From Chloroflexota bacterium (GTDB lineage Bacteria; Chloroflexota; Anaerolineae; UBA4142), in the NCBI GenBank assembly GCA_037440625.1, contig JBBITT010000017.1:1767-65766 (forward strand): 64,000 nucleotides of DNA. Reading direction: 5' to 3'. Of the stretch, positions 8,567 to 60,810 are shown one piece after another. The notes under the pieces were generated by a model, which did not search any database, was not told the origin of the DNA, and worked only from the letters and a program-made list of their open reading frames with translations. Both the position numbers and the translations under genes were made by a program. How positions within the stretch are numbered: the stretch's first letter is position 1; the number at the start of each line of letters is the position of its first letter.

Positions 8567-8567
8567 A

Positions 8568-15847: not shown

Positions 15848-16945
15848 ATGTTGCGAATCGTACTCGATGCGCGCTGTGCGACGACGCACTTTCCCGGCAT
15901 CGGACGCTATATCGTTAATCTGGCATGCGGATTGCACGCGCTTGCGCCGGAACTGGATTTGTGTTTGCTCGTGGATTCATCGGCGCGCGGCGGAATGCCT
16001 TTGCCGGCGTTGCCGCAAATCGAATGCGATGTCTCGCCGTTTTCGCTTAGCCAGCAATGGCGTGTGCCGCTCGCTTTGCGCCGCGCGGGCGCGACCCTGT
16101 ATCACAGTCCATACTATGGGATGCCGTACGCGCCCGGCGTGCCATCGGTTTTCACGTGCTATGATTTCATCCCCTTACTTTTGCCGGCGTACTTTTCCGC
16201 CGCGCAACGATTCATTTATCGGTTGGCACATTGGCTGGCATTGCACGCGACGCGTGGCGTGATTACGATTTCAGAAACCACCCGCGCTGACCTCGCTCGC
16301 TTTTTCGATTTGAAGCAACGCCGTGTAGTTGTAACGCCGCTCGCGCCCGATTCACATTTTGCGCCACCCACGCATTCGGCGATTGAGGCGGTGCGCCAGA
16401 AATATAATTTGCCGAATGAGTATGTGTTATACTTGGGCAGCAACAAGCCGCACAAGAATCTGCCGCTGCTGGTCCGGGCATTTGCGCAATCGGCGATTGC
16501 CCACCAGACGACGTTGGTGATTGCCGGTCAATGGGATGTCCGTTATCCGGACGCGCAAAACATCGCGGCGAAAACCTCGGCGCGGATTTTGTTTTTGGGT
16601 GCCGTTGCGGAGGCTGATTTGCCGGCGTTGTACGGCGGCGCAACGTTGTTTGTGTTTCCCTCGCAGTACGAAGGATTTGGTTTGCCGCCGCTCGAAGCGA
16701 TGGCGTGCGGTACGCCGGTGGCGTGCAGCCACATTCCCAGTTTGCACGATGTGGTGGGCGAGGCGGGCGCGTTTTTCGATTTGAACGTGAACGCGGTGCA
16801 AACCACCTTGGAACATCTTTTGAGCGATGCTGGCTGGCGCAAACGTTTGCGCGAGCGTGGTCTAGCACGCGCGGCGCAATTTTCATGGGAGCAGACCGCA
16901 CGCAAAACGTTGCAAATTTATCGAGACATCCTAGGTGAAAAATGA
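15848..16945 (+). CDS. GT4 glycosyltransferase
   Basis: [59 protein letters not shown]. Confidence 0.8.
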   Translation: MLRIVLDARCATTHFPGIGRYIVNLACGLHALAPELDLCLLVDSSARGGMPLPALPQIECDVSPFSLSQQWRVPLALRRAGATLYHSPYYGMPYAPGVPSVFTCYDFIPLLLPAYFSAAQRFIYRLAHWLALHATRGVITISETTRADLARFFDLKQRRVVVTPLAPDSHFAPPTHSAIEAVRQKYNLPNEYVLYLGSNKPHKNLPLLVRAFAQSAIAHQTTLVIAGQWDVRYPDAQNIAAKTSARILFLGAVAEADLPALYGGATLFVFPSQYEGFGLPPLEAMACGTPVACSHIPSLHDVVGEAGAFFDLNVNAVQTTLEHLLSDAGWRKRLRERGLARAAQFSWEQTARKTLQIYRDILGEK

Positions 16946-24210: not shown

Positions 24211-25206
24211 ATGACCACGCTCGTACTCATCTTTGCGACTGCCCTCGTCTTTGCCATAGGCGCAACGCCGATCGCGCGCCGCATTGCTGTGCATACCGGG
24301 ATGATAGACCAACCGAATGCGCGCAAAGTCCACACGACCCCCATTCCCCGTTTGGGCGGCGTGGCGATCTATGGCGCATTTATGCTCGGGCTGATTTTGT
24401 TCGCCGATCGGTTTTACATTCCCCAGTTGATTAGCATCATCGTTGGCGCAACGTGGGTGTCGTTTCTAGGATTGTGGGATGATCGCGTGGGCTTGAATGC
24501 GTGGATCAAACTGTTGGGCCAGGTCTTGGCCGCCGTGTTGCTCATTCTCACCGGCGTTTCGGTGGATTTGGTTCATCAACCTATCGTGGATGCGGCGATT
24601 GCGCTTGTTTGGATTGTGGGCATTACCAACGCGATGAACTTGCTCGATAATATGGATGGCCTCTCCGGCGGCGTGGCTGCCATCGCCTCCGGTTTTTTTC
24701 TGTTGATCGCCTGGCTCAACGGCCAGTATCTGGTGGGCAGTTTGTGTGCAGCACTCTTTGGTGCGTCCATCGGTTTTTTGATTTACAATTTTAACCCCGC
24801 TTCTATTTTTATGGGCGATGCGGGGAGTCTCTTTCTCGGCTTTGTGTTGGCGGCGGTTGGATTGAAATTACGCTTTGTCACGCAACCACTGGCAGAAACC
24901 TGGTTCATTCCGATTCTGGTGCTGGGGCTTCCTATTTTCGATACGACTCTTGTCTTTGTCTCGCGTTTGCGGCGCGGGTTGAATCCGTTGATGCATCCCG
25001 GCAAAGATCACATTTCGCATCGTTTGGTCGAACGCGGGATGACGCGCCGCGAAGCCGTCTTGCTCTTGTATCTCGTGGCGTGTGCCCTCGGCATCATTGC
25101 GATGTTTAGTGTGCGGATCGGGACGTGGCAGGCACAAGGAGTATTTGCGCTGGTCATCCTAGCGGGGCTCGTTGCCTTGTACGAATTTGAATTTCGCCGG
25201 GTGTGA
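24211..25206 (+). CDS. WecA/MraY-family polyprenyl-phosphate N-acetylhexosamine-1-phosphate transferase (initiating enzyme)
   Basis: DQPNARKVHTTPIPRLGG, ITNAMNLLDNMDGL, NFNPASIFMGDAGSLFLGF. Confidence 0.85.
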   Translation: MTTLVLIFATALVFAIGATPIARRIAVHTGMIDQPNARKVHTTPIPRLGGVAIYGAFMLGLILFADRFYIPQLISIIVGATWVSFLGLWDDRVGLNAWIKLLGQVLAAVLLILTGVSVDLVHQPIVDAAIALVWIVGITNAMNLLDNMDGLSGGVAAIASGFFLLIAWLNGQYLVGSLCAALFGASIGFLIYNFNPASIFMGDAGSLFLGFVLAAVGLKLRFVTQPLAETWFIPILVLGLPIFDTTLVFVSRLRRGLNPLMHPGKDHISHRLVERGMTRREAVLLLYLVACALGIIAMFSVRIGTWQAQGVFALVILAGLVALYEFEFRRV

Positions 25207-28028
25207 GGGAGGATGGTGTGACACTGGAACAACGCATTGCTCAAAAGACAGCGCGCCTTGCCGTGGTGGGCTTGGGGTATGTGGGTTTGCCTTTGGCAAC
25301 TGAATTTGCGCGCGAAGGTTTTTCGGTGGTTGGCATAGACATTGATGCGCGCAAAGTGGAGAAACTGAATCGTGGCATCAGTTACATTCCCGATGTCGAA
25401 ACCCGGACGGTCAAGCACTTGGTCGCCCGCAAAAAATTTTCCGCCACAACCGATTATGCCGCCATTGCGAATAGCGATGTCATTTTCATTTGCGTCCCCA
25501 CCCCGTTCGATGAAATGAAGGCACCCGATCTCAAACCGGTGATTGCAGCGACCCAGAGTATCACGCCCCACTTGAAGCAAGGGCAACTGGTCATCTTGCA
25601 AAGCACAACCTACCCGGGAACGACGGAAGAAGTCTGCCTGCCGATTCTGGAAACCAGCGGCTTGAAAGCCGGCAAAGATTTCCATCTTGCGTTTTCACCG
25701 GAACGAATTGATCCGGGCGCGACAAGTAGTCAAGGTTGGAACGTCAAGAACACGCCCAAGACCTTGGGCGGACTCACGCCGAAATGCACTCGTTTGGCAA
25801 AAGCGTTACTTGTTCATCTCACACCTCAGGTCTTTGCCGTCTCTTCGCCGCGGGTGGCGGAGATGAGCAAACTTTTGGAAAACATCTTTCGCGCCGTGAA
25901 CATCGCCTTGGTCAACGAATTAGCCCTCTTGTCCGAGCGAATGGGGATTGATTTTTGGGAAGTGATCGAAGCGGCCAAGACCAAGCCGTTTGGTTTTATG
26001 GCGTTCTATCCCGGTGCGGGGGTCGGTGGCCATTGTCTAGGCGAGAACGAATTCCTCTTCGTCAAGAATGGGCGTGGACTGACGAGCGTCCGCGTCGGCG
26101 AGTACTTTACAGAGATACAGCAACAACAGCCGACCACGGCGCGGCAAGTTGGCGAGGTAACGCTGCTGGAGCCAGAGGGCATCCATGCGCTTTCATTTGA
26201 TCCTGAGCGGCAAAAAGTTTGTCTCAAACCACTGGTGGCATTGTCGCGTCGCACGTATCATGGAACGCTCGTGGATGTTACCACCATTGATCGTCGTCGC
26301 CTCATGGTGACAGATGGTCATCCGATGGTCGTATGGAAAGAAGGCGCGCTACACGTCCAGCGCGCGGATACGCTCCAAGTCGGCGATGAGTTGATCGTGG
26401 CAACGCATTGGCTTGACAGTACGGCCACCCCCACCATTGATCTGATTCCTCATCTGACGCCAGAGGAAATTGCCAAGATTCGCGTCATGCCCCAGCACGG
26501 GCGTTTCGCTGACTATCGCGAGCAGTTCACACCGGGTCTCAAGGCACTCGGTGTTGATCCTCACCAAGTCTATCGCTCGAATCGGATGCCGCTGGCAATT
26601 TACTTGGCGCTGGAGAAGCAAGGCATCACGCCGTTCTCTCGTCGCGATATCGTGTTGCGGACTGGGCGTGGTCCATCGTGGAATGCGATGCCCGCCGTGA
26701 TCGTTGTGGACGAAGCATTCGCTCGCTTGGTTGGTTACTATCTGAGCGAAGGGTGCATTACGCGAGACAAATCGTTGCGGACGCGTTGGACCTTCAACGC
26801 CGATGAACGCGAGTATCTTGACGATGTTTGTCGCATCCTGAGCGGGCTGGGGGTCCGCTTCTCCAAGCGCAAGGATAGAATTTGGAATGCTGTCCAAATC
26901 AAGGTGTCCTCTCATTTGTTCGCGCGTCTGTTGCGTGATGTATTACAATGCGGCACACGCTCGACCAATATGCAGATTCCCGGCATCTTGATGGAAGCCC
27001 CCGCGCCAATCCGCCTGGGCGTGCTGGCAGGATTGTTGCGCGGCGATGGCGATGTAAATTTGGAACAGCGTGTCCGGCATTATTATCACCAGAAGAAGCG
27101 GCGCGCCTATGACCATCATATCAACGTCGCAACGGTCGGCTATTTCTCGAGCAGTCCACACCTTTTTCAACAGACCGTTTTGCTCGCGCAAGGACTGGGT
27201 TTCGTTCCAACGTTCAAGCAAGGCAAACCGTACTTGCGATTCTACGGCGAGCAGCAACTGGCGCGCCTCTTGCCGCTCTTCGAAGGGGATAAACGCGCCG
27301 CCTTGAAAAAGTATGCGGAGGGACGACGGAAGCGGATGCCCACCAAGAGCTTCGGCGCACACCGCAACTTGGCAACAGTCAAGGTGGCAGCGGTTTCGCA
27401 CCAAGTTGGAACGCACACCGTCTATTCCGCCGAAATTAAAGATACGCACACCTTTGTCACCTCCTACGGCATTGTCACACACAATTGTATCCCCGTGGAC
27501 CCGTACTATCTTTCGTGGAAGGCGCGCGAGTACGATTTTTATACAAAGTTCATCGAACTCGCCGCCGAGATCAATCAAGGCATGCCGTATCACGTGGTCA
27601 AACTGGCGCACGATCTCTTGAGCCAACACGGCAAAGCGATCAAGAACGCGCGCGTGCTCGTCTTGGGGGTGGCGTTCAAACCGAACGTGGACGATGCGCG
27701 CAACTCACCCGCCGAGCGCGTCATTGAATTGTTGCTCAACAATGGCGCGCAGGTCCGTTATCACGATCCGTACGTGCCGACGTTTCGCGTGGGGAACAAT
27801 GTGTTCTTGCGCGAAACCATCGAATTGAAATCCGTGCCACTCACACGCGACGAATTGCGCCGCAACGATCTCGTCGTCATTGTAACCGCGCATCGCAAGG
27901 TCAACTATCGTTGGGTCACACGCCATGCGCCATTGATCGTGGATTCGGCGAACGCGACCAAAGGATTGGGCGACCCCGCCAAAATCATTCGTGTGGGCGC
28001 GCCCTTTGCTAAGAAAGGCAAGCAATGA
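25203..28028 (+). CDS. Nucleotide-sugar (UDP-N-acetylhexosamine/UDP-glucose family) 6-dehydrogenase interrupted by an intein
   Basis: Rossmann LAVVGLGYVGLP; exteins join as GAGVGGH/CIPVDPYYL; 941 aa in total, 457 aa without the insert; GTGA overlap with the upstream gene (alternative GTG at 25218). Confidence 0.9.
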   Translation: MREDGVTLEQRIAQKTARLAVVGLGYVGLPLATEFAREGFSVVGIDIDARKVEKLNRGISYIPDVETRTVKHLVARKKFSATTDYAAIANSDVIFICVPTPFDEMKAPDLKPVIAATQSITPHLKQGQLVILQSTTYPGTTEEVCLPILETSGLKAGKDFHLAFSPERIDPGATSSQGWNVKNTPKTLGGLTPKCTRLAKALLVHLTPQVFAVSSPRVAEMSKLLENIFRAVNIALVNELALLSERMGIDFWEVIEAAKTKPFGFMAFYPGAGVGGHCLGENEFLFVKNGRGLTSVRVGEYFTEIQQQQPTTARQVGEVTLLEPEGIHALSFDPERQKVCLKPLVALSRRTYHGTLVDVTTIDRRRLMVTDGHPMVVWKEGALHVQRADTLQVGDELIVATHWLDSTATPTIDLIPHLTPEEIAKIRVMPQHGRFADYREQFTPGLKALGVDPHQVYRSNRMPLAIYLALEKQGITPFSRRDIVLRTGRGPSWNAMPAVIVVDEAFARLVGYYLSEGCITRDKSLRTRWTFNADEREYLDDVCRILSGLGVRFSKRKDRIWNAVQIKVSSHLFARLLRDVLQCGTRSTNMQIPGILMEAPAPIRLGVLAGLLRGDGDVNLEQRVRHYYHQKKRRAYDHHINVATVGYFSSSPHLFQQTVLLAQGLGFVPTFKQGKPYLRFYGEQQLARLLPLFEGDKRAALKKYAEGRRKRMPTKSFGAHRNLATVKVAAVSHQVGTHTVYSAEIKDTHTFVTSYGIVTHNCIPVDPYYLSWKAREYDFYTKFIELAAEINQGMPYHVVKLAHDLLSQHGKAIKNARVLVLGVAFKPNVDDARNSPAERVIELLLNNGAQVRYHDPYVPTFRVGNNVFLRETIELKSVPLTRDELRRNDLVVIVTAHRKVNYRWVTRHAPLIVDSANATKGLGDPAKIIRVGAPFAKKGKQ
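26034..27485 (+). mobile_element. Intein with LAGLIDADG homing-endonuclease domain (484 codons)
   Basis: Cys1 CLGENEF; block B TDGHP; LVGYYLSEGC and LAGLLRGDGD; C-terminal IVTHN followed by +1 Cys. Confidence 0.9.
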
Positions 28029-49185: not shown

Positions 49186-51096
49186 ATGAATCGGCAATCC
49201 ATCCATTCCCCCTTCATCGAACGCCTCGTGCTGGGGGCGATGCTCCTCCTTGCTTTGGCGGTGCGCCTTTATCGGTTGGAGGCGCAAGCCCTTTGGTGGG
49301 ACGAAAGTCTCAGCGTGTATCGTGCGACGCGCGATCTGGGCACCGTTTTATCGAACACGATTCTCATCCAGAATTTGGTTACGGTGGATACGTTGCCCCA
49401 GTTGTATTTTGTGCTCCTCAACGTGTGGGTGCGTGCGACGGGCATTAGCGAATACGCGCTCCGATTTTTCTCCGTGTTTGCCAACGTTGCCACGCTTCCG
49501 CTCATCTACGCGCTGGCGCGCCGATGGTTGAGCAAATCGGCGGCGTGGGTGGCGATGTTGCTGGGCGCGCTCTCGCCATTCTACACGTGGTACGCCCAAG
49601 AAGCACGACCGTATGCGTTGGTACTTTTTTGGAGCACGCTGGCGATTTATGCGTTGACGCGTGCATTGGATTCGCGCTCGCGTGTTTGGCTGATAACCTA
49701 TTTGCTCGCAGCCACGGCATCACTTTACACGCATTACTATTCGCTCTTTCTCTTGCCATTCCATTCGATTCTAATTGCAATGGCGTGGAGACCGAATATC
49801 AAGCGCGCGTGGATAGGGCTTCCCACGTTGCCGCTTCTCGGCGCGATTTTTTTGTTGCCGCAAATTCTTGCCAGCATGGCGGGCAACGTCAATTGGGGTC
49901 CCATCTTTGTCCCGCTCCCAACCATCTTGCTCGATCTGCTCAACTCGTTCAGCGTGGGCGTTACCGCTGATTTGAACGCGGTGTGGTGGATTGATGGGGC
50001 ATTACTGGTAGTGTTCGCCATCGGTCTAAGTCTCAAACCTCAAATCTCAAATCCCAAATTTGAGATTTGGAATTTGCGATTTGGGATTTTGGCTTTCGCC
50101 TATTTGCTGGTGCCGGTACTTGGAGTTTTTGTCGCGTCATTCATTCGCCCGTTGTATCAAAACTCGCGGTACCTCATTTCGATTAGCCCGGCGTTTTATC
50201 TGGGTGTGGCGGCGGGTATCGTTGTCTTGCGGCGGCGTTGGCAATGGATGGCGATCTCGGTAATTGCCGTGTACCTGCTTGGCGCGATCATCTCGCTGAA
50301 CAATTGGTATTTCAATCCACAGTTCGGCAAAGACGATCATCGCGGCTGGGCGGCGTCTCTGCGCGAGCGCGTGCTGCCCGGCGATTTTCTCATTCTCGAT
50401 TCGCCGCACACCGAAGAGCTGTATCGCTACTATGCTGACGATCTCGTGCCGATGATTACGCTACCGATTTTGCGCGCGGATGGTCAGCCCTCGCCCCAAG
50501 CCGATTTGGACGCCATCCGCCAAGCGTATCGCCAGCACGCGCGCGTGTGGTTTTTGGCTTTGCATGTCCCGTTCGATGATCCGTACCAACGCATCGAAAC
50601 ATTGTTGCATCAAGAAGGAGTGTTGATTGACCAAGCCCAATTTGCTGGCACGAGTACCGCGATCACCCTAGCGTTGTTTATGCCGACAATGCCGGTCGCA
50701 CAGCCCGGCGATGTTCCGTACCCACTCGATCTTGGATTTGCCGGCAATTTGCGTTTGCGCGGCTATGATGCGCCCACATCGTTGCGTACCAATCAACCCA
50801 ACTTCATCAAACTCTTTTGGCAACTGGACGAACCGGTGGGCGAAGATTATGCGGTATCGTTGCGCGTGGTGGATGACGCCGGTCAAGTCGTGATGCAACA
50901 CGATGCCGTGTTGTTGGGCAATCGTGCCGGCACATCCACATGGATGCCCAAGCAAATCCTGGTCGAGACGCGCGCCATCGTGTTGACGCATCCGATCGTT
51001 GCCGGAAAATATGCTTTGCAAGTGGTGCCTTATCACCTTGCGACCGGTAATGCGTTGGGCGAAGTGTTCACGCTGGCTGAGATTGAGGTACCGTGA
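49186..51096 (+). CDS. GT39/ArnT-type (GT-C fold) polyprenyl-phosphate-sugar-dependent glycosyltransferase, paralogue 1
   Basis: First-loop WWDESLSVY (D-E motif), about 11 TM helices, C-terminal beta-rich domain shared with 51868 and 57411. Confidence 0.75.
   Translation: MNRQSIHSPFIERLVLGAMLLLALAVRLYRLEAQALWWDESLSVYRATRDLGTVLSNTILIQNLVTVDTLPQLYFVLLNVWVRATGISEYALRFFSVFANVATLPLIYALARRWLSKSAAWVAMLLGALSPFYTWYAQEARPYALVLFWSTLAIYALTRALDSRSRVWLITYLLAATASLYTHYYSLFLLPFHSILIAMAWRPNIKRAWIGLPTLPLLGAIFLLPQILASMAGNVNWGPIFVPLPTILLDLLNSFSVGVTADLNAVWWIDGALLVVFAIGLSLKPQISNPKFEIWNLRFGILAFAYLLVPVLGVFVASFIRPLYQNSRYLISISPAFYLGVAAGIVVLRRRWQWMAISVIAVYLLGAIISLNNWYFNPQFGKDDHRGWAASLRERVLPGDFLILDSPHTEELYRYYADDLVPMITLPILRADGQPSPQADLDAIRQAYRQHARVWFLALHVPFDDPYQRIETLLHQEGVLIDQAQFAGTSTAITLALFMPTMPVAQPGDVPYPLDLGFAGNLRLRGYDAPTSLRTNQPNFIKLFWQLDEPVGEDYAVSLRVVDDAGQVVMQHDAVLLGNRAGTSTWMPKQILVETRAIVLTHPIVAGKYALQVVPYHLATGNALGEVFTLAEIEVP
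50032..50094. repeat. Inverted arrays of heptanucleotide repeats (CTCAAAT x4 / ATTTGAG-type x4-5) inside the coding sequence
   Basis: ctcaaac ctcaaat ctcaaat cccaaat | ttgagat ttggaat ttgcgat ttgggat tttggct; 63 nt, in frame (KPQISNPKFEIWNLRFGILA). Confidence 0.75.
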
Positions 51097-51866
51097 CCCG
51101 ACCCGAAGAAATGTTGATGCACCCGGAGGAATACCGGGTGATGTTCCAAGTCGAGAATGGGTATTGGTGGTATCGTGGTTTGCGCAACTTGCTCAAGCAA
51201 TTATTGCCACGTTACCTTCCGCGGGATGCCAACGCTCTCATCCTCGATGCCGGGTGTGGGACGGGCGCCAACCTGCAATTGTTGCAAACGTGGGGGCGCG
51301 TGATTGGGATTGATATCGCGCGTGAGGCACTCGATTTTTGTCGTGTGCGCGGCGTGCCTAGCGATCGCCTGCTTGCCGCGTCCGTAACCGCGCTCCCGTT
51401 CGCGGCGCAATCGTTTGACGTGGTCGTTTCGTTCGATGTCATTTGCAATATTCCGGATGATGTGGATGCGTTCGAACAGGTGGTGCGCATTTTGAAACCG
51501 GGCGGCTATTTCATCGTCCAGTTACCAGCGTATCAATGGTTGTGGAGCATGCACGATGTTGCCGTGGGGCATCAACGGCGGTACTCGTCGCGCGAGACAC
51601 GCGCCAAACTGGAACGCGCCGGCTTGCACGTCGTTCGTGTGTTGCACACCAATGCGTTGTTGCTTCCGTTGGTGGCAATCGAACGTTTACTGCGCCGATA
51701 TGCGATGGAGCATCACGCCCCAGTGGTTTCCGATCTGCAATTGAATGTGCCCGCGTGGCTCAATCAACTGCTTTCGATCATTTATCAAATCGAGATCGCG
51801 TTTGCCGCGCGCGTGGATTTTCCGATTGGACTATCCCTGATTGCGGTGGCGCAAAAACAAGTGTGA
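51093..51866 (+). CDS. Class I SAM-dependent methyltransferase
   Basis: LILDAGCGTGANLQLL, ILKPGGYFIV; GTGA overlap with the upstream gene. Confidence 0.75.
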   Translation: MTRPEEMLMHPEEYRVMFQVENGYWWYRGLRNLLKQLLPRYLPRDANALILDAGCGTGANLQLLQTWGRVIGIDIAREALDFCRVRGVPSDRLLAASVTALPFAAQSFDVVVSFDVICNIPDDVDAFEQVVRILKPGGYFIVQLPAYQWLWSMHDVAVGHQRRYSSRETRAKLERAGLHVVRVLHTNALLLPLVAIERLLRRYAMEHHAPVVSDLQLNVPAWLNQLLSIIYQIEIAFAARVDFPIGLSLIAVAQKQV

Positions 51867-51867
51867 A

Positions 51868-53772
51868 ATGAAAAAGTTTTGGCTTTTAGGATTGATTCTG
51901 CTTGCCTTTGTCGTGCGCATGTATCGGCTGGATGCCTTTGCCCTCCGCGGCGATGAATCGTTCACGGTGCTGTTTGTTCAGCGAACCTGGGAAGGATTAT
52001 GGCGCGGGATTAGCACCATCGAACCGAATCCGCCGTTGATGTATCTCGCGTTGCGGGTCTGGGTGGCGATTGCCGGCACAAGCGAATTTGTTACGCGGCA
52101 CTTTTCCGTGTTCTTTGGCATGCTGGGCGTGCCACTAATCTATCGGCTGGCGCGCGAAATGTTCAAATCACAGACGATTGCACTGACCGCCGCCGCGCTC
52201 ATCGCGATCAATCCATATCAGATTTGGCATTCGCAAGATGTGCGCAACTATACGATGTGGCCCACGCTCAGTTTGCTGGCGTTGGTTTTCTTTTGGCAAT
52301 GGTGGCGAAAGGAGACTACCGACTACCGACTACCGACTACCGACTACCGACTAGCGACTAACAACTACCGACTAACGACTAACAACTACCGACTAATTCT
52401 TTATGTGGCCGCCACACTCGCCAGTCTCTACACCCATTATTACGACGTATTCATCCTTGCCGCACTCAATCTGTTTGTGCTCACCTTTGCCAGCGTGGCG
52501 CGGCGATGGCAAACTTTGGTGCGATGGATTGGTGCGCAAGCGGCGTTGGTCTTGCTCTACGCGCCCTGGGTGCTCGTTGGAACGAATCGGATCACGACGT
52601 ACAATGAAGCAAGTGCGGAGCAAAGCGTCTCTTTGCTCGATGTGTTCAGCCGCACGCTTGCCGCGTTCATCGTCAGCGAAACGGTCCCGCGCGATGTGTG
52701 GTCAATGGTGTGGTTGCCACTCTCGCTTGCCCTCGTCGCGATTCTGGTCTATCTCGCCAAACGAAATCACGAACGTGCGCTCTTTCTCGCGCTTTACATT
52801 GCGGTGCCGACGTTGGCGCTGTACATCATTTCGATGGGGCGCCCCTTGTTTTTGGAACGGTATCTCAACGGCATCGCGCCGGCGTATTATCTGGTGTTTG
52901 CGGTTGGTATCGCCGCGCTGATTCAGAGGCGCACCTCACTCGCCAAGGTTGGGTTGATCGTTGCCGCGCTGTTTTTTATCGGCACATCGGTGTATGCCAC
53001 GTGGAATGCCAACTTTGATCCGGCGTTTGCCAAAGCCCCCCTATGGCGCGAAATGGCGCAAACGATTATCGCCCAAATGCGACCGGGCGATCTGGTCGTT
53101 CAGAATTTTACCGAGGTGTCGCCGTACTATTATCTCAATCCGTACGTACCCGTGTTTACGCTCCCGAAAGATTACTGGTTCACGCCGGCGGACGAACCAC
53201 TCTTGCGCCAATGGACTACCGAATATCGGCGGATCTGGTTTATTCCAGCACAACCGAATCAGTGGGACCCGGATCAACAGGTGGAAAAATTCTTGGCGCA
53301 CCATGCGGAACGGGTTTTCGAACGGCGGATGGGAACGTTACGCGTGCAACTGTATCTGACCCCGCGCGAGTTTGCTGCCAAAATCAATCCGCTGAATGCG
53401 CGCGTGGGTAATGCGACATTGACCGGTTATCACATTGAGCGCGGCAACCCGGTGCGCGTGGTGTTGTATTGGCGCGCGGAGCAACCGATCACCCAAGCGT
53501 ATAGCGTCTTTGTGCATCTGGCTGATGCGCATAACCAGATCGTTGCGCAACAGGATCGTGCGCCGGCGTTTGGTTGGTATCCCACCACCGAGTGGCAACC
53601 CGGCGAATCCATTGTGGATGTGTACGAATTGACGGTGGATGCGCCGGGCACATTCACGCTCATCGTTGGAATGTACGATCCAAACACGCTTGAACGTGTG
53701 CCGGCGTTTGATGCAAACGGTACGCGATTCACGGATGATCGCATCGTCCTGACGCAAATCACAATTCCATAA
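51868..53772 (+). CDS. GT39/ArnT-type GT-C glycosyltransferase, paralogue 2
   Basis: LRGDESFTV first loop, EPNPPLMY, C-terminal domain LTGYHIE...VVLYWRAEQP...YPTTEWQPGE. Confidence 0.75.
   Translation: MKKFWLLGLILLAFVVRMYRLDAFALRGDESFTVLFVQRTWEGLWRGISTIEPNPPLMYLALRVWVAIAGTSEFVTRHFSVFFGMLGVPLIYRLAREMFKSQTIALTAAALIAINPYQIWHSQDVRNYTMWPTLSLLALVFFWQWWRKETTDYRLPTTDYRLATNNYRLTTNNYRLILYVAATLASLYTHYYDVFILAALNLFVLTFASVARRWQTLVRWIGAQAALVLLYAPWVLVGTNRITTYNEASAEQSVSLLDVFSRTLAAFIVSETVPRDVWSMVWLPLSLALVAILVYLAKRNHERALFLALYIAVPTLALYIISMGRPLFLERYLNGIAPAYYLVFAVGIAALIQRRTSLAKVGLIVAALFFIGTSVYATWNANFDPAFAKAPLWREMAQTIIAQMRPGDLVVQNFTEVSPYYYLNPYVPVFTLPKDYWFTPADEPLLRQWTTEYRRIWFIPAQPNQWDPDQQVEKFLAHHAERVFERRMGTLRVQLYLTPREFAAKINPLNARVGNATLTGYHIERGNPVRVVLYWRAEQPITQAYSVFVHLADAHNQIVAQQDRAPAFGWYPTTEWQPGESIVDVYELTVDAPGTFTLIVGMYDPNTLERVPAFDANGTRFTDDRIVLTQITIP
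52314..52397. repeat. Heptanucleotide tandem repeat, 12 units (GACTACC x5 perfect plus 7 variants) within the coding sequence
   Basis: gactacc x5, gactagc, gactaac, aactacc, gactaac, gactaac, aactacc, gactaat; encodes TTDYRLPTTDYRLATNNYRLTTNNYRLI. Confidence 0.9.
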
Positions 53773-55988
53773 TGTCCAAATCTCAAACCTCAACCCCCCA
53801 ATCCCAAATCATCAGTGATTTTGCTGCGCTGGTGTTCATCGCCGCGCTAGTTTTGCTTTTCTTTTGGCGCATCCTCACGCCGCGTTTGGAAGACCGCGCC
53901 GTCTTTCCGCCCGGCGATTTTACCGATCAGTTTTGGATGTTCCGTGTCTATGAAGCGCGCGCGTTTGCGCAAGGACGCTTGCCACTGTGGTCAGACAATT
54001 TCAACAGTGGGCATCCCTTCCTCGCTGATGTGCAGAGCGCGCTTTTTTATCCGATCGGTTTGGTGTGGACACTCCTTGTCGTTGCAACGCGCGGCGCAGA
54101 TTTTACATTGTTCGATTTAGAAGTTGAAGCGATTTTGCATTTCATACTTGCCGGCGCGTTCACGTATTTGTTTGCCAAACGCTTGCTCGGCTCGCGCATC
54201 CCTGCGTTGGTGAGCGCGCTCACTTTTACGTTCGGCGGTTATCTCACCTCCTATCCGCCGCAACAACTCGCCATTCTGGAAACGGCAACGTGGCTACCGC
54301 TAATTTTATTGTTGTTGGATTACGCCCTCGAACGCGGCTGGCGTTATTACCTTGGGGCAGGGGTCGCGCTGGGCGTTGCCGCGTTGGCGGGGCATCCGCA
54401 GACATTGATGTTTGTAGGTTATGCGAGCGTCATTTATTTTGTGTGGCGCGCCCGACAAAACTCAAATTCTCCATCTGCCAGGAATTGGATTTTGAGATTT
54501 GGACTTGATTTATCACTTGTTCTTTTCATCGCCGCCGGCATTGCCGCCGCGCAATGGCTCCCCAGTCTCGAATATCAAATGGTCTCAACGCGTGCCGCCC
54601 TTTCGTGGAAAGATGCCGCCAGCGGTTTCCCCACACTCGATCCTCTGCAAATGATTTTGCCGGGCTATGCTAGCGCGTTTCAATCGCCGTTGTATATCGG
54701 CATCTTGCCGCTGTGGTTTGCGCTCTTGGCTTTGTTCATTCAGCGTTCGCGCGAGAAAATATTTTGGCTTGGACTCGCGCTCGGCGCGCTCATTGTTTCA
54801 TTTGGTTTCTACGTGTTTGGGTACGCCTTGTTTTATCTCTTGGTGCCCGGCTTTGCGCTGTTTCGCGGTCAAGAACGACTTGCCTTCATCATTAGTTTTT
54901 CACTGGCGATCCTCGCCGGGTACGGTTTGCGCGATTTGATGCAAGCATCGTTCGATGGAAAACGGGCGCGCCGGCTGTGGGCATTGCTACCGGCCGGCAT
55001 CGTCGTCAGCGTGCTGATGCTGTTCACGATGTACATCGCCGCGCGCGAGTACCAAACCGGCCGATTATTCTTTCTCACGGATCGCGCCGGGCTGATGGCG
55101 TTATTGTTTGGGCTGGCAAGTGTGGTCGCGCTGGTGCTGATTCAACGCCGGCAAGGGGCTTTGGGACTCGCGCTTGCGCTAATCGTCTTTGATCTGTTTA
55201 GCATCAATAACGCCCTGTATAACGCTGACCCCACGCCACGATTCCCGGCGACGCCCATCATCGAAACAATTCAAAACGATGCCGGGATTTTCCGGGTGGT
55301 GGATGAAGGGACGCAACCCGGGCATTTTGGCATTGCGTATAATCTCGAAGAGATCGGCGGGATTAGCCCGCTGCGCATCGCCTACTATAATCAATTGCTG
55401 GACGAGTTGCCCGCAGAAAATTTGTGGCGCCTGCTGAATGTGCGGTACGTGCTGACCCAGCGCCCCAGTTTGGCGCACGCCGATTTGGTTACCCAAGACG
55501 GCGAGGCGCGCTTGTTTCGTTTGCAAACCCAAATGCCACGCGCGTGGCTAGTCGGCACAGCGCAACTGGCGGACGATGCGAACGCGCTTGCCGCGATGCA
55601 AAATGATTCCTTCGATCCGCGCGCCATCGTTTATCTCGCCGAGGCGCCGGCATTTTTGCCGGTGCCCAATGCTGCGTTCACCCCGGTTACCTTTGAACAA
55701 CGCGACCCGGAACATTTTACGCTGACCTTCAACACGCCCACTGATTCGATTTTGGTGTTGAGCCACACGTATTATCCCGGTTGGCGCGCGACGGTTGACG
55801 GCGACGCCGCGCCGATTCTGCGCGCTAACGTTGCGTTGCAAGCGATTGCCGTGCGCGCCGGCGCACATCGCGTTGAAATGAGTTTTGAGCCGTGGTCGGT
55901 GAAGGTGGGGATTGCGATTTCTATTTTGACCATCGGGGTGCTCGTGGTTGGGACCGTCTTGAAAGGTAGGAAGGCAAATGCAACTTGA
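53772..55988 (+). CDS. YfhO-like polytopic membrane glycosyltransferase (GT-C)
   Basis: GDFTDQFWMFRVYEARAFAQGRLPLWSDNFNSGHPFLADVQSALFYP resembles the YfhO N-terminal signature; TAATG overlap with the upstream gene. Confidence 0.55.
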   Translation: MSKSQTSTPQSQIISDFAALVFIAALVLLFFWRILTPRLEDRAVFPPGDFTDQFWMFRVYEARAFAQGRLPLWSDNFNSGHPFLADVQSALFYPIGLVWTLLVVATRGADFTLFDLEVEAILHFILAGAFTYLFAKRLLGSRIPALVSALTFTFGGYLTSYPPQQLAILETATWLPLILLLLDYALERGWRYYLGAGVALGVAALAGHPQTLMFVGYASVIYFVWRARQNSNSPSARNWILRFGLDLSLVLFIAAGIAAAQWLPSLEYQMVSTRAALSWKDAASGFPTLDPLQMILPGYASAFQSPLYIGILPLWFALLALFIQRSREKIFWLGLALGALIVSFGFYVFGYALFYLLVPGFALFRGQERLAFIISFSLAILAGYGLRDLMQASFDGKRARRLWALLPAGIVVSVLMLFTMYIAAREYQTGRLFFLTDRAGLMALLFGLASVVALVLIQRRQGALGLALALIVFDLFSINNALYNADPTPRFPATPIIETIQNDAGIFRVVDEGTQPGHFGIAYNLEEIGGISPLRIAYYNQLLDELPAENLWRLLNVRYVLTQRPSLAHADLVTQDGEARLFRLQTQMPRAWLVGTAQLADDANALAAMQNDSFDPRAIVYLAEAPAFLPVPNAAFTPVTFEQRDPEHFTLTFNTPTDSILVLSHTYYPGWRATVDGDAAPILRANVALQAIAVRAGAHRVEMSFEPWSVKVGIAISILTIGVLVVGTVLKGRKANAT
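53775..53809. repeat. Direct heptamer array (CCAAAT family), half element at the 5' end of the CDS
   Basis: tccaaat ctcaaac ctcaacc ccccaat cccaaat. Confidence 0.55.
54461..54505. repeat. Degenerate inverted heptamer element (CTCAAAT ... TTGAGAT TTGGACT) inside the CDS
   Basis: ctcaaat tctccat ctgccag gaattgg att ttgagat ttggact; encodes SNSPSARNWILRFGL. Confidence 0.45.
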
Positions 55989-57414
55989 TCGAACTGATTC
56001 ACGCGTGCGTAATGGGTTCATCGTCCTCGTTGCCATGCTGCTTGCCATTGCCGGCAGTGCCACCATCGCGTTCGTTCATCCACTTGTTCCGTTCGCGGTC
56101 ATCATTGGCATGGTCATCGGCGCGATCATTCTATCGAACATCGAGTTTGGGATGTACGCCGTGATGGCCATCGCGGTGCTATTGCCGTTCGCCGCGCTCC
56201 CGCTCAATATCGGTTTCAATCCAACCTTTCTCGATCTTGCGCTTGTCGCGGTGTACGCGATGTGGTTTACACGCGTGATGACGCGTCAAGCCGAACATGG
56301 TTTTGTCGCCACGGTATTAGGTTTGCCTATCCTGACGTTTCTCATTCTCGCTATCTTTTCATTCATCGCCGGCACCGCGCACGCACCGATTACCACGCAG
56401 GTCTTGCGCCAGTTCGCCGAAGTGCTGGCGGCGATTGCGTTCTTCTTCGTGATCGTGAACACCGTGCAGACGCGTGCAATGCTTAGACGCTATGTGACCG
56501 CGCTCATCCTTGCCGGCTTTGTCTCCGCGTTCATCGGGATCATTCTCTATGTGCTTCCCCGTGACCTGACGATCATGTTGCTCTCGTTGTTGCGCGTGTT
56601 CAAGTATCCTTCGGGTGAAGGGGTTTTGCGTTTCATCGAAGATGATCCCAACAATCCGATGCGTGCGATCTCGACCTCGATTGATCCGAACGTGTTGGGC
56701 GGTTTGATGATTTTGGTTACCGCGCTCGCCGCGCCGCAACTCTTTGCCGAGAAACCGTTGTTGCCGCGCAAACTTGTGCTCGTCATGGTTGGCACGATGT
56801 TTGTGTGTTTGGTGCTGACGTTTTCACGTGGAGCCCTGTTGGGCTTGGTGCTGGCATTGACCGTGATCGCCACCGTACGCTATCGTCCGATGATCGCCTT
56901 GATTTTGCTGGGCGCGATCGTGTTCTTGTTCTTGCCGTTCACGCAAGAATATCTTGGGCATCTTTTGGATGCGTTCACGCTGAGCGACCGAGCGACCCAA
57001 ATGCGACTGGGCGAATACAAAGATGCGCTCACGCTGATTTCGCGTTATCCATTTTTTGGCGTGGGCTTTGGCGGCTCACCCGATATTGACACCTACCTTG
57101 GTGTATCCAGTGTCTATTTGTTGATGGCAGAAGAAATGGGCTTGATTGGCTTGAGCGTGTTTCTCATCATTATGGGCACCTTCTTTTATCAAGCGCTCCA
57201 AGCGTGGTTTGCGCGGATTGCCCAAGACAAATTTCTCGCGCCGATTTTGTTGGGAATCGCCGGGGCGTTGCTCGGCGCGATGATCGGCGGTTTGGTGGAT
57301 CACTATTTCTTCAATCTCCGATTTCCGCACTCGGTCGTCTTGTTTTGGTTGTTCGTGGGGCTGGGGATGGTGACGATTCGATTGAGCAACCCTAACGCTG
57401 ACGAACTCCAATGA
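55978..57414 (+). CDS. O-antigen ligase/polymerase-family (Wzy_C) membrane protein
   Basis: About 11 TM helices, TFSRGALLGLVLAL motif, periplasmic loop region. Confidence 0.7.
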   Translation: MQLDRTDSRVRNGFIVLVAMLLAIAGSATIAFVHPLVPFAVIIGMVIGAIILSNIEFGMYAVMAIAVLLPFAALPLNIGFNPTFLDLALVAVYAMWFTRVMTRQAEHGFVATVLGLPILTFLILAIFSFIAGTAHAPITTQVLRQFAEVLAAIAFFFVIVNTVQTRAMLRRYVTALILAGFVSAFIGIILYVLPRDLTIMLLSLLRVFKYPSGEGVLRFIEDDPNNPMRAISTSIDPNVLGGLMILVTALAAPQLFAEKPLLPRKLVLVMVGTMFVCLVLTFSRGALLGLVLALTVIATVRYRPMIALILLGAIVFLFLPFTQEYLGHLLDAFTLSDRATQMRLGEYKDALTLISRYPFFGVGFGGSPDIDTYLGVSSVYLLMAEEMGLIGLSVFLIIMGTFFYQALQAWFARIAQDKFLAPILLGIAGALLGAMIGGLVDHYFFNLRFPHSVVLFWLFVGLGMVTIRLSNPNADELQ

Positions 57415-59477
57415 AGATTCCGCAGCGCGTTTGGGTCCCTGCAATTCTCCTCGCCGCGTTCGCCGTGCGAATGTTTCGGCTGGGCGCGGCAAGTTTGTGG
57501 TACGACGAGACGGTGAGCGTTTACCTTGCGCAACAGAATCTCGTCGAACTCACCTGCCACACCGCTGGCGATATTCATCCTCCGCTGTATTATTATCTCT
57601 TGCACTTTTGGGGCAACCTTGCCGGCTGGTCCGAATTGGCGATGGCGTTCGTCTCGCTCGGCTGCGATCTTTTGCTGATTGCCCTCGTTTATCGTGTGGC
57701 GCGCGCGTGGCTCGACAAACAGGTTGCCACCCTTGCCGCGTTTCTGGTAGCGATCTCGCCGTATCACGTGTGGTACTCGCAAGAAGTGCGAATGTACACG
57801 CTCGGCGCGCTGCTGGGACTGGCATCGGTTTATTTTCTTGTGCGGTTGATTAGTCGTCAGGCGTCAGGCACCACTCGCCAGTCCATTTTCTCGCGCGACT
57901 TGATCGCTTATGCGATTATCAGCGCGCTGGGTTTGTATACGCTCTACTATTTTGCTTTTCTGATTGTCTTTGAAAATCTTGTCGCCTTTGTTTGGCTTAT
58001 TCGCCATTCAAGATCACGGCTTGATTTGCGATTGGGAAATTGGAAGTTGGGATTGGTAACTTGGGTTTTCTCCCAACTTGCCATCCTTGCACTCTATCTG
58101 CCCTGGGCGCCCATCGCCTTCCGCCAAGCCACCGATCCCCCCGTTCCGCCGTGGCGTTCCTTCACCGCGCTCCCGCAAGTTCTGCTCGAATCGTTTTCCG
58201 CGCTCACGCTGGGACAATCCATTGACCCGCTGATAGCATCGCCGGTGCTATTCATCGTTGTGGTCGTGATGCTCATCGCATGGTGGCGGAACCGCTTACT
58301 GCCGACTACCTACCGCCGACTGCCTACTGTGTTGTTCCTACTTGGTTATACCTTGATCCCACTTGCGCTCATCTATACGCTTTCGCTTTGGAAACCGCTC
58401 TACCATGTCCGCTATGTTTTCATCTATTCGCCGGCGTTTTACATCCTGCTCGCAATGGGTTTAGAGAAGATTCGCCATTCGTCATTTGCCGTTCGCCGTT
58501 TGCGTTTTGCGTTTTACGCTTTACTCTTTATTCTGCTCACCGCCTCTGGCTTTTCGATCTACAATTTTTGGTTCAACCCTCGTTATGCCAAAGACGATTT
58601 GCGCGGCGCGGTGAATTATCTTGCGGAACGTTGGCGACCCGGCGATGCGATTCTCCTCAACGCCGGCTACACCTACACCGCGTTCGTGTACTATTATGAT
58701 CAACCGATCGCGTGGCGCGGACGATTGACTGCGTACACCGCGCAGAACGCCCAGGAGGGTGCAATCGTTTTGCAAACCGGCTCGATCGGCGGCGCACCGA
58801 ACCTGGGCTGGGGCGATCCGCGTTCCGATTTTTACGCGACGACCGCTGACGAAACGCGTGCCGCGCTCGATCGAGTCTTTGCCGCGCACCCGCGCGTGTG
58901 GATGCTCCGCTTGTACGATACGGTGGTTGACCCGGCCGGTATCATTCGCGATTATCTTGCCACACGTGGGCGCCTCATTGACGATCAAGGATTCGCTGGC
59001 GAATCCTACGCGCGTGTGCAAGGTTATCTCACCTCGCCTTTGCCAACGACGACCTTGCCCTCCACGCTCACACGCCGCGATGTGTTGCTGGGTAATCGAA
59101 TTGGGTTGCTGGGCTTTGAGCCGGCATCGTTGACAGTACACGCCGGGCAAACGATTGACGTGAACGTGTACTGGCAAGCCAAAGAACAAACGAATGTGGA
59201 CAGCCATCTTTTCATCGGGGTGTACGCAGAAGATGGTGCGCTGGTTGCTTCAACCGAAGAAATTCCCATCGGCAATGCGCTAGGCACATCACGTTGGACT
59301 CCCGGCGAAATTTTGCGCCACCCCATTCGTATGCGTCTCCCGGTGCATCTGGCACCGGGTCTTTACAACTTGCGCGTCACACTATACAATCCGCTCACCA
59401 ACGAACCCTTGAGCGCGCCGCCAAATGTTGCGGACGCAAGTCAAATTATGCTGACCCAGATTCGAATCGAAAAATGA
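57411..59477 (+). CDS. GT39/ArnT-type GT-C glycosyltransferase, paralogue 3
   Basis: LWYDETVSVY first loop, GDIHPPLYYYLLHFW, C-terminal LLGFEPA...VNVYWQAKEQ domain; ATGA overlap. Confidence 0.75.
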   Translation: MKIPQRVWVPAILLAAFAVRMFRLGAASLWYDETVSVYLAQQNLVELTCHTAGDIHPPLYYYLLHFWGNLAGWSELAMAFVSLGCDLLLIALVYRVARAWLDKQVATLAAFLVAISPYHVWYSQEVRMYTLGALLGLASVYFLVRLISRQASGTTRQSIFSRDLIAYAIISALGLYTLYYFAFLIVFENLVAFVWLIRHSRSRLDLRLGNWKLGLVTWVFSQLAILALYLPWAPIAFRQATDPPVPPWRSFTALPQVLLESFSALTLGQSIDPLIASPVLFIVVVVMLIAWWRNRLLPTTYRRLPTVLFLLGYTLIPLALIYTLSLWKPLYHVRYVFIYSPAFYILLAMGLEKIRHSSFAVRRLRFAFYALLFILLTASGFSIYNFWFNPRYAKDDLRGAVNYLAERWRPGDAILLNAGYTYTAFVYYYDQPIAWRGRLTAYTAQNAQEGAIVLQTGSIGGAPNLGWGDPRSDFYATTADETRAALDRVFAAHPRVWMLRLYDTVVDPAGIIRDYLATRGRLIDDQGFAGESYARVQGYLTSPLPTTTLPSTLTRRDVLLGNRIGLLGFEPASLTVHAGQTIDVNVYWQAKEQTNVDSHLFIGVYAEDGALVASTEEIPIGNALGTSRWTPGEILRHPIRMRLPVHLAPGLYNLRVTLYNPLTNEPLSAPPNVADASQIMLTQIRIEK
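58020..58070. repeat. Heptamer array (TTGNGAT family, inverted orientation only) inside the CDS
   Basis: ttgcgat tgggaaa ttggaag ttgggat tggtaac ttgggtt; shares atttgcgatt-ggga with 50073..50086. Confidence 0.5.
58297..58331. repeat. Degenerate GACTACC-family heptamer tract inside the CDS
   Basis: tactgcc gactacc taccgcc gactgcc tactgtg; encodes LLPTTYRRLPTV. Confidence 0.5.
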
Positions 59478-59493
59478 AATTCGCGGAGGAACT

Positions 59494-60810
59494 ATGAGCA
59501 CCCAACCCCAAGCCGATCTTGCACGCATCATCGAATCCGCGCGCCGGCTCGGCATCGAAATGGATGAAGCCGATGCCTTGCAATGGCTCACCGCGATGGC
59601 AGCCGCGTCAAGCGGCGGCGATATTGTAATGGACACGCGCAGTGGTGTGTTTGGTCATAAAGTAACGATGCTCGATTTTAGCGATGAGCAACTTGCGCAC
59701 TATCGCGCGATTGGTCGCTTGGTAGAGTTTGCCGATGTGCCCGGCGTCGTGGAAACCGCGCTCGCCTTGTCCGGCTCTGCCGCGCAATCCAAAATTCAAA
59801 CCTATCCCGGCGATTGCGATTATTTCGAACGCATCAACATTATCGCCGCAACCCGCGAAAAGGCGTGCGAAATTCTTGCCAAGATTATGCGTGAGAAAGC
59901 GTTGAGCACGCTCAAAGGGGCAACGTATCAACTCATCGAAGTGAAATTTGGTTCGTATCCGTACGAGGTGGTGAAAGGCGAACAGAGAATCAAAGCCGGG
60001 TCGCCGGTGTCGTGGGCGCCCGCCGAAATTCAAGCGGGTCAGATCGAAGCGTTCACGCCCGATGGAAAACCGGTGACGATTCGTTGGGACGATGTGGCGC
60101 AAAACCCGGGTTGGTGCAAACTCGATTGGGTCATTGCCGATCCGGCGCGCGGGCAACTGGCCAACGCCTCGAATATGCTCGATGTAACCTGGGAGGCACC
60201 GGACGGAACGATTACGCCGCTCGATGGTTATCTCGATCCATACTTTCAAGAAGTCTATCTCGATGCAACCTCCGTCCCGATTTTTTCCAAGTTAGCCAAA
60301 CACGTTTCGGCGGACGCGCTGGACGAGTACGTGGCGCAGTTGCAAAAGGAAATCAAAAAGTATTTGCAAAAAGAGCATCTCAACTATGGCAAGGTGGCTA
60401 AACGGATGTACAACATTTTTCGTTTGACCGGGCGTTACCAAGAAGCCGCGTTCGTGCGTGAATTGTTCGATGAGCCCGCCACGGTGTTGTACCAAGTTTG
60501 GTCGCTCATCCGCACGATTGACGATTGTTGCCAAGCCGGCTCGAGCATTTCCAGAGAAACGATGCTCGCGCAAACGGATCAACTCATCGTTCACGTGGTA
60601 GATGTGTTGGAAGGTGATCGGGAAGCCGAAATCGTCAAACGCCTTTTGCGTTTGCGCGATAGTTTGACACGCCAAGTGGCAGGGCAAGCATTGGATGCCC
60701 AAGCCGAAGCTGCCCGCGCCGAGGTGATCAACATCGTCAACAATTTTTTCTACGCCAAGTTGACTGCCTTGCCAACGATCAAAGAATATCTCGAAACGAT
60801 GGGGCAATAA
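59494..60810 (+). CDS. Hypothetical protein with a nucleotidyltransferase-type GS...DxD motif
   Basis: LALSGSAAQSKIQTYPGDCDYFERINI (G-S, 11 residues, D-x-D); later KLDWVIAD; helical C-terminal half; GGAGGA RBS 16 nt after the upstream stop. Confidence 0.35.
   Translation: MSTQPQADLARIIESARRLGIEMDEADALQWLTAMAAASSGGDIVMDTRSGVFGHKVTMLDFSDEQLAHYRAIGRLVEFADVPGVVETALALSGSAAQSKIQTYPGDCDYFERINIIAATREKACEILAKIMREKALSTLKGATYQLIEVKFGSYPYEVVKGEQRIKAGSPVSWAPAEIQAGQIEAFTPDGKPVTIRWDDVAQNPGWCKLDWVIADPARGQLANASNMLDVTWEAPDGTITPLDGYLDPYFQEVYLDATSVPIFSKLAKHVSADALDEYVAQLQKEIKKYLQKEHLNYGKVAKRMYNIFRLTGRYQEAAFVRELFDEPATVLYQVWSLIRTIDDCCQAGSSISRETMLAQTDQLIVHVVDVLEGDREAEIVKRLLRLRDSLTRQVAGQALDAQAEAARAEVINIVNNFFYAKLTALPTIKEYLETMGQ

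Follow-up and report, generated by a model that had tools for sequence, protein, structure and literature searches.

A partly degenerate heptanucleotide tract in an ArnT-like glycosyltransferase gene of an Anaerolineae bacterium as a candidate on/off switch

Among the closest described counterparts of the locus discussed here is the neuO gene of Escherichia coli K1, in which a heptanucleotide repeat within the open reading frame (ORF) phase-varies by slipped-strand mispairing, as stated in the passage of PMC9659370 that cites the original 2005 report. In Neisseria, a heptanucleotide repeat controls the phase variation of pglE, a pilin-glycan glycosyltransferase gene that belongs to a glycosylation module with several variable genes (PMC7157529), and the contingency loci of Haemophilus, Neisseria, and Campylobacter carry tetranucleotide or homopolymer tracts in lipooligosaccharide or capsule genes (reviewed in PMC11868660). 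Here, we consider a 12-unit GACTACC-type heptanucleotide tract inside a gene for a GT-C (glycosyltransferase fold class C) enzyme on contig JBBITT010000017.1 of a Chloroflexota bacterium of the class Anaerolineae, of which a stretch of 64,000 nucleotides (nt), hereafter the window, was analyzed. A first-pass annotation of the window had proposed this tract as a phase-variable locus. That proposal stands insofar as whole-unit, frame-breaking polymorphism is found at the same loop in orthologues (contigs L014, L015, and L006), whereas all alleles found of the GACTACC tract itself consist of multiples of three units.

Like the tract, the neuO repeat is a heptanucleotide tandem repeat within the ORF of a glycan enzyme gene and is translated as a heptad peptide; neuO is ON only at multiples of three units. 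Its polyPsi repeat lies near the 5' end of the gene for a soluble capsule O-acetyltransferase of the CUS-3 prophage in a host-associated proteobacterium, and its switching has been shown experimentally. The tract, in contrast, is located in midgene rather than at the 5' end, starting at codon 149 of 634, in the chromosomal gene of a polytopic GT-C enzyme from a free-living member of the Anaerolineae; it is partly degenerate, and its switching is putative. Likewise, pglE is a glycosyltransferase gene with a heptanucleotide repeat, but its product belongs to a different fold class and Neisseria is a host-adapted pathogen, with phasotypes that have been measured in carriage isolates. The classical simple sequence repeat (SSR) loci share with the present cluster the nontriplet repeats in surface-glycan genes, the presence of several repeat-bearing genes per cluster, and the occurrence of ON and OFF alleles among close relatives. 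Their tracts are pure and usually located at the 5' end, with measured switching rates, whereas the arrays described here have a 7-nt unit, are often degenerate, lie internally, occur several to a gene, and differ in unit among orthologues. The first-pass annotation was not aware of a description of such a switch for GT-C enzymes of this kind of organism. In the literature that we searched, we found no report of heptamer-repeat or phase-variation switching for Chloroflexota or for GT-C enzymes, but heptanucleotide switches within the ORFs of glycan genes are known as such (neuO and pglE).

The tract consists of five perfect GACTACC units followed by GACTAGC, GACTAAC, AACTACC, GACTAAC, GACTAAC, AACTACC, and GACTAAT, and Tandem Repeats Finder (TRF) reports it with a period of 7, 11.7 copies, and a score of 122. 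The coordinates, the heptamer unit, the count of 12, and the five perfect units of the first-pass annotation were all confirmed by the sequence and by TRF, and the gene, its length, and the translation TTDYRLPTTDYRLATNNYRLTTNNYRLI proved correct as well (codons begin at 52315, with 52314 being a third codon position). The seven variant units, all described as single-substitution variants, comprise six single variants and one, unit 12, with two substitutions. The tract exceeds what chance would give: period 7 is the sole tandem period that stands out across the window, and the octamer CGACTACC, for which 0.65 occurrences are expected, is found 5 times. A hairpin was considered and rejected, as no inverted repeat is present in the tract.

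A perfect heptamer array yields the identical cyclic 7-residue peptide from all three frames and hence has no frame-specific stop. Truncating stops arise here because the TAG and TAA triplets of the degenerate 3' units enter the frame after an upstream change that is not a multiple of three units. In simulations within the perfect run, changes of -1, -2, +1, or +2 units led to a stop at residue 160 or 167 and a change of -4 units led to a stop at residue 153, whereas changes of -3 or +3 units left the ORF at full length. This agrees with the earlier claims that changes other than multiples of three would truncate the protein at about residue 160 through stops inside the tract and that three-unit changes would keep the gene on. 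In other words, as in contingency loci, a tandem repeat with a unit that is not a multiple of three lies within an ORF, and the gain or loss of units abolishes the product in simulation. The perfect five-unit run is predicted to be the most slippage-prone part of the tract.

The encoded protein matches the Pfam families PMT_2 (PF13231; 34.4 bits, with a cutoff of 26.1) and PMT (PF02366; 24.8 bits, with a cutoff of 22.7), and the PMT_2 match ends at residue 150, where the tract starts. In an AlphaFold2 (AF2) model built on 42 orthologues, the mean predicted local distance difference test (pLDDT) score is 91, and the sole segment below 50 comprises residues 155 to 167, the middle of the tract, between the helices formed by residues 130 to 154 and 164 to 187. 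Together with the hypervariable length of this stretch among orthologues, the model supports the location of the tract in an interhelix loop, as had been annotated. The top Foldseek match was ArnT (5EZM; E value, 2.7e-8; TM-score, 0.60), followed by AglB, ALG12, ALG9, PglB, and Pmt4, and these matches place the model in the GT-C fold class. The label GT39, used by the first-pass annotation, agrees with the PMT_2 and PMT matches but is nominal in view of ArnT as the nearest solved fold; relatives are named GT39 or ArnT-like by some sources, and ArnT-like GT-C enzyme is the safer name. Residues R27, G28, D29, and E30 are invariant in the 42 sequences, with D29 and E30 in the first outer loop, and by analogy with other GT-C enzymes the conserved acidic residues may have a catalytic role. 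A topology was predicted from the helices of the AF2 model, the loop with the invariant D29/E30, the positive-inside rule, and the expectation that a GT-C enzyme has its C-terminal domain outside; the best fit has 11 transmembrane (TM) helices with the N terminus inside and the C-terminal domain outside. A topology with 12 TM helices was rejected, since it would place the short K/R-rich loops outside and the C-terminal domain inside. With 11 helices, the array hotspots would all fall in short, K/R-rich cytoplasmic loops and the invariant motifs would all lie outside.

The unit counts in relatives come from assembled metagenome contigs. More than 100 metagenome orthologues from Chloroflexota/Anaerolineae carry a hypervariable insert at the position of the tract, roughly 10 to 40 residues long in those that were read, and the DNA encoding these inserts consists of heptamer arrays whose units differ (Table 1). 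A T-[TA]-D-x-R motif recurs at the start of the loop in many orthologues. In P0201 (contig L016), the array has been homogenized to its ACGACAG-type unit, which fits concerted evolution by repeated slippage. Other periods also occur at this loop: the fragments P0184 and P0185 carry repeats encoding PETTKVVTT (27 nt) and SLWSP (15 nt).

Alleles with a broken frame were found at this same loop. The 90%-identity cluster to which P0015 belongs has 15 members, 10 of which are intact at 688 residues; it also contains several fragments that start just 3' of the loop, and three to four contigs look disrupted. Two fragment-bearing contigs, L014 and L015, were read at the DNA level. They are 99.73% identical over 5539 nt, with 15 single-nucleotide polymorphisms, and differ by only two indels, one of 7 nt (TGTCATT) at the loop and one of 14 nt (AATTCACAATTCGC) within another heptamer array that this gene carries. 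The intact peptide LSFVICHLSLYV needs four TGTCATT units, of which L014 has three and L015 has two. When two units are added to L015, the 688-residue ORF is restored, with 675 of 688 residues identical to P0015; when one unit is added to L014, the frame is restored up to a second lesion of this contig. In L006, with AGACAAC as the unit family, the halves on either side of the array lie in different frames, and readthrough is obtained solely after the gain of one unit or the loss of two. Out-of-frame whole-unit alleles thus occur at the homologous site in near-identical genomes, in orthologues with other unit sequences and not in the GACTACC tract. These contigs indicate that frame-breaking whole-unit changes at the loop are real in natural populations and are far more frequent there than other indels, and about a quarter of the alleles in the population-level P0015 cluster appear to be OFF in otherwise intact genes. 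The perfect five-unit run of the window would be expected to slip no less readily than the four-unit run that varies in these relatives.

We therefore regard a role of the tract as a mutational on/off switch as credible, and we lean, with some reserve, toward a hypermutable heptanucleotide repeat of the contingency type, in which slipped-strand mispairing would give rise to ON, OFF, and loop-length variants. The repeat would be embedded in a permissive, probably cytoplasmic loop between two membrane helices of the ArnT-like enzyme, and replication slippage would add or remove whole 7-nt units, chiefly in the perfect run. Changes of three units or of 21-nt blocks would alter the loop by 7 residues and leave the enzyme working. 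All others would shift the frame onto the TAG and TAA triplets of the degenerate 3' units, such that the protein would terminate around residue 160 and lack 7 of the 11 predicted helices as well as the entire outer domain. The TAATG overlap between the stop codon of the tract gene and the start codon of the YfhO gene may couple their translation, and a premature stop in the tract could then be polar, probably lowering the expression of the downstream genes. The resulting ON, OFF, and loop-length states would be heritable and, in principle, reversible, as at contingency loci. The slippage mechanism, its reversibility, the side of the membrane on which the loop lies, the downstream polarity, and a benefit to the cell are elements that we infer.

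Several observations weigh against such a switch. Among the five GACTACC-type alleles that we found, by a retrieval that was partly protein based and thus favored intact genes, no out-of-frame allele was present. The window has 12 units, and its protein is identical to P0199 from an NCBI metagenome-assembled genome (MAG); the closest genome, Anaerolineae MAG H63_652 (L001/L005), has 9 units, a number found independently in a Logan assembly (L002), and 6 units are found in a JGI contig (L003; protein P0002), in P0203, and in an independent contig, L008 (P0182). The series 12, 9, 6, 6, and 6 thus consists of multiples of three only, which is formally a pattern that the first-pass annotation itself had named as speaking against its proposal. 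(Contig L008 ends in a TAA that results from two substitutions 12 nt before the contig end and was treated as unreliable.) Synteny between the window and L001 extends over 18 kb at 94.2% identity, with the 21 nt of the tract as the largest indel; the step from 9 to 12 units is a single in-frame duplication of a 21-nt block and does not need an OFF intermediate. The two genomes share the order of the unit variants, PPP[P/A]PGAN, although 13.9% of the third codon positions outside the tract differ; identity is 96.8% in the tract compared with 92.7% in the remainder of the gene. Moreover, the tract contains 7 degenerate units among its 12, unlike classical contingency tracts, which as a rule are pure. 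The GACTACC tract is thus length polymorphic but not visibly hypervariable. The disrupted orthologues, in turn, could be decaying pseudogenes and not reversible OFF states; L014 has two lesions. All three disrupted contigs fall in one European Nucleotide Archive accession range (ERZ2724...) and may share one project. The neighboring genes with arrays at the loci retrieved, 12 in number, are all intact.

When the metagenome and genome collections were scanned with protein seeds, each gave a single locus; one of these was a distant relative and the other the H63_652 MAG. An exact look-up of the window's protein gave no match, although the identical P0199 is present in the collection. A search with the synthetic peptide (TTDYRLP)x6 matched only ORFs of 36 to 74 residues in unrelated taxa, which we take as probably spurious calls over repeat arrays and not as a dispersed coding GACTACC family.

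In 149 kb, made up of the window and six loci, 31 arrays with a period of 7, 14, or 21 were counted, whereas shuffled sequence gave 1.2; the excess is about 25-fold, and the other periods lie near background. When 29 arrays in five loci were mapped to genes, 26 lay in GT-C (PMT_2/YfhO) genes, at a density of 0.74 per kb, and 3 were intergenic, at 0.32 per kb; in the 93 kb of other coding DNA of these loci, no array was found. The restriction to GT-C genes has a binomial P value of 6e-13, with the reservation that orthologous sites are not independent. Arrays recur at fixed sites, namely, the tract loop, the loops that follow "REMF" and "AIGLAA," a loop of the paralogues, and the first YfhO codons. 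Heptamers are reported as the commonest long SSR in prokaryotes (Mrazek 2007 as cited), with the heptamers of Calothrix and Nostoc, GGGAATC in Xanthomonas, and TAACTGA in Beggiatoaceae as known examples. The arrays described here resemble the prokaryotic and cyanobacterial heptamer SSRs in the specific excess of heptamers over other periods, a feature of short tandemly repeated repetitive (STRR)-like sequences, and likewise in the variation of length and sequence among close relatives and the occurrence of inverted arrays. They differ in location: those SSRs are mostly intergenic and underrepresented in coding DNA, and 26 of the 29 mapped arrays are in frame inside GT-C coding sequences.

The alternative that survives best, although we rate it as possible rather than probable, is that the tract is a neutral by-product of a strong mutational bias of the lineage toward 7-nt slippage, with arrays arising widely but surviving solely where an insert of 7 to 28 residues is harmless, for instance in intergenic DNA or, within GT-C enzymes, at tails and short cytoplasmic loops. 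The tract would then be an in-frame insertion of long standing that has decayed in part and is by now rather stable, and the relatives with a broken frame would carry ordinary loss-of-function alleles of paralogues that the cell can do without, and not a switch. This reading is favored because the tract is degenerate, its units have kept their order across about 7% divergence, and L014 is doubly lesioned, as expected of a pseudogene. The in-frame state of all GACTACC alleles, the persistence of a GACTGCC-type array in an orthologue with 59% identity, and the predicted clustering of the hotspots on the side of the membrane opposite the invariant motifs point in the same direction, and the abundance of heptamers among the long SSRs of prokaryotes has been suggested to have possible polymerase-related reasons. 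Yet a neutral origin would have to account for an array density in GT-C genes that exceeds the intergenic one (with only three intergenic arrays to compare), and permissiveness alone is not an obvious explanation for the absence of arrays from the other coding DNA, where further polytopic membrane proteins are encoded. It would also have to explain why "live" perfect runs persist at the same loops despite differing units (in the window, L009, L010, L012, and the TGTCATT arrays of the P0015 cluster). The switch is favored because of this restriction to GT-C genes, together with the perfect runs persisting at the same loops and the OFF state of about a quarter of the alleles in the P0015 cluster.

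A broader form of the switch, which is speculative and in our view unlikely, would extend to the whole operon. In this form, each of several GT-C genes would carry several arrays, in the cytoplasmic loops of the PMT_2 proteins and at the N terminus of YfhO, that slip as independent switches and generate combinatorial ON/OFF surface-glycan states; second-order selection, for instance by phage pressure, would keep arrays at the same loops while the units turn over.

Still less probable is that the heptad peptide itself is under selection as a functional spacer that extends the loop or a helix, with 7-residue length steps tuning activity or interactions and frameshifts being incidental. Repeat length reportedly tunes enzyme activity in the polyPsi repeat of NeuO, the GACTACC alleles differ in exact 7-residue steps (28, 21, and 14 residues), and AF2 extends both flanking helices into the tract. 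The unrelated peptides found at the same loop in orthologues (ISDFRFQ, WRLEIGD, WKLEVGS, and FKVPSSKLRS), in inserts of roughly 10 to 40 residues, and the low pLDDT at the center of the tract are hard to reconcile with such a role. The recurrence of the T-[TA]-D-x-R motif would suit a spacer but may also reflect shared DNA ancestry, since a perfect array yields the same cyclic peptide in any frame.

Finally, we consider it very improbable that the unit numbers, including the frame-broken ones, are metagenome assembly errors: all sequences are indeed metagenome assemblies and several contigs end at or near the loop (P0087, P0182, P0183, P0184, and P0200), but the arrays, at 14 to 84 nt, fall short of the k-mer length of 141 nt to which the k141 contig names point and would typically be spanned by one short read, the 9-unit allele was obtained twice independently (in an NCBI MAG and in a Logan assembly), the 6-unit allele comes from different samples (L003 and L008), and contigs that are otherwise 99.7% identical differ by exact whole units.

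Table 1. Features of the tract, its gene, and the surrounding cluster in the window, with arrays found at the equivalent loop of orthologues
Feature	Coordinates	Strand	Remarks
Gene cluster	49186..60810	+	PMT_2, methyltransferase, PMT_2 (tract gene), YfhO, Wzy_C, PMT_2, unannotated ORF
Degenerate (TCTCAAA)n abutting its own reverse complement (TTTGAGA)n	50028..50089	+	In paralogue 1
GT-C glycosyltransferase gene	51868..53772	+	634 residues; Pfam PMT_2/PMT, ArnT-like fold
Heptanucleotide array, 12 units	52314..52397	+	In-frame peptide (TTDYRLP)(TTDYRLA)(TNNYRLT)(TNNYRLI)
Perfect 5-unit GACTACC run	52314..52348	+	Perfect periodicity reaching 52353; no stop in any frame
Seven degenerate units	52349..52397	+	TAG/TAA triplets currently out of frame
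Two tandem 21-nt blocks, 20/21 identical	52356..52397	+	GACTAAC AACTACC GACTAAC / GACTAAC AACTACC GACTAAT
TAATG overlap, tract-gene stop/YfhO start	53770..53774	+	
Weak degenerate (CCAAATC)-type array	53775..53809	+	Directly 3' of YfhO start codon; below TRF score here
14-nt-period array containing CGACTACC	58297..58327	+	In paralogue 3
Drifting array, ATTCGCC to TTTGCGT to CTTTACT	58458..58545	+	In paralogue 3
Loop array, 59%-identical orthologue			GACTGCC-type
Loop array, orthologue			ATTTCAG, 3 perfect units
Loop array, orthologue			GGAAGTT
Loop array, orthologue			GTTCCAA, then its own reverse complement
Loop array, L016 (P0201)			ACGACAG-type; flanks about 95% identical to L003

The cluster that contains the tract gene is tightly packed and is also conserved in relatives; all the heptamer arrays that the window was found to contain lie within it (Table 1). 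A second polysaccharide cluster at 7 to 28 kb, with polytopic membrane proteins (flippase, Wzy-TPR protein, and WecA-like enzyme), has no arrays. At the start of YfhO, an array of the (CCAAATC)/(AAATCCC) type lies just past the start codon in every relative examined, reaches the TRF score at the same site in L001, L003, L009, L010, and L012, and is similar to the G-rich heptamers of the GGGATTT type known from Nostoc and Xanthomonas. The palindrome of paralogue 1 has arms of 34 nt with 79% complementarity inside a coding loop, and the same arrangement is seen in the tract loop of L009 and in P0014.

The drifting array of the third PMT_2 paralogue encodes a loop and the next membrane helix. In the MAG with 94% identity, the same stretch (L001, about 16570 to 16650) is an unrelated (TCACGCC)/(TTTTACT) array, and slippage alone does not account for this replacement. 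By back-translation, a TCACGCC/ACGCCTC unit is compatible with the sixfold TPHASRL repeat of the distant protein P0020. Arrays often drift to T-rich units (TTTTACG and CTTTACT) that encode runs of F, L, Y, and V and merge into the adjacent membrane helix, as in the L016 tract, at 58499 to 58545 of the window, and in P0008 and P0009. This suggests that heptamer arrays may be able to extend or rebuild membrane helices.

The loop after "REMF" is a second insertion hotspot, at which an in-frame, palindromic element resembling a miniature inverted-repeat transposable element (VIAS..AKQSP...RFARNDT) is found in P0008, P0009, P0014, P0015, P0022, P0056, and P0102 and at about 960 to 1080 of L007. The window gene lacks this element; P0191 and P0192 end at the hotspot, and in the fragments P0184 and P0185 this loop carries a 20-residue (60-nt) repeat in four copies. 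Two candidates for disruption at the tract loop were set aside. The frameshift of P0194 sits in the "REMF" loop, and in L007/P0089, which looked like a split gene, the N terminus is replaced upstream of the palindromic element in another loop; as a probable chimera or truncation, L007/P0089 was left out of the count.

Elsewhere in the window, at 25203 to 28028, a UDP-glucose/GDP-mannose dehydrogenase gene is split by an intein (Pfam Intein_splicing and LAGLIDADG_3) that carries a LAGLIDADG homing-endonuclease domain. In one relative, L016, a gene of the AbiEii toxin family (8075 to 8737) separates Wzy_C from the cluster's last PMT_2 gene; the window lacks this toxin-family gene.

Repeat-driven phase variation has been documented mostly in host-adapted pathogens. 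Should the tract and its counterparts act as proposed, stochastic on/off control of envelope glycans would also operate in free-living uncultured bacteria, and the unit number at these loops in spanning reads would provide a simple, countable metagenomic marker. The confinement of the arrays to GT-C genes, together with their replacement by unrelated heptamers between genomes with 94% identity, bears on how repeats are born and retained in genes.

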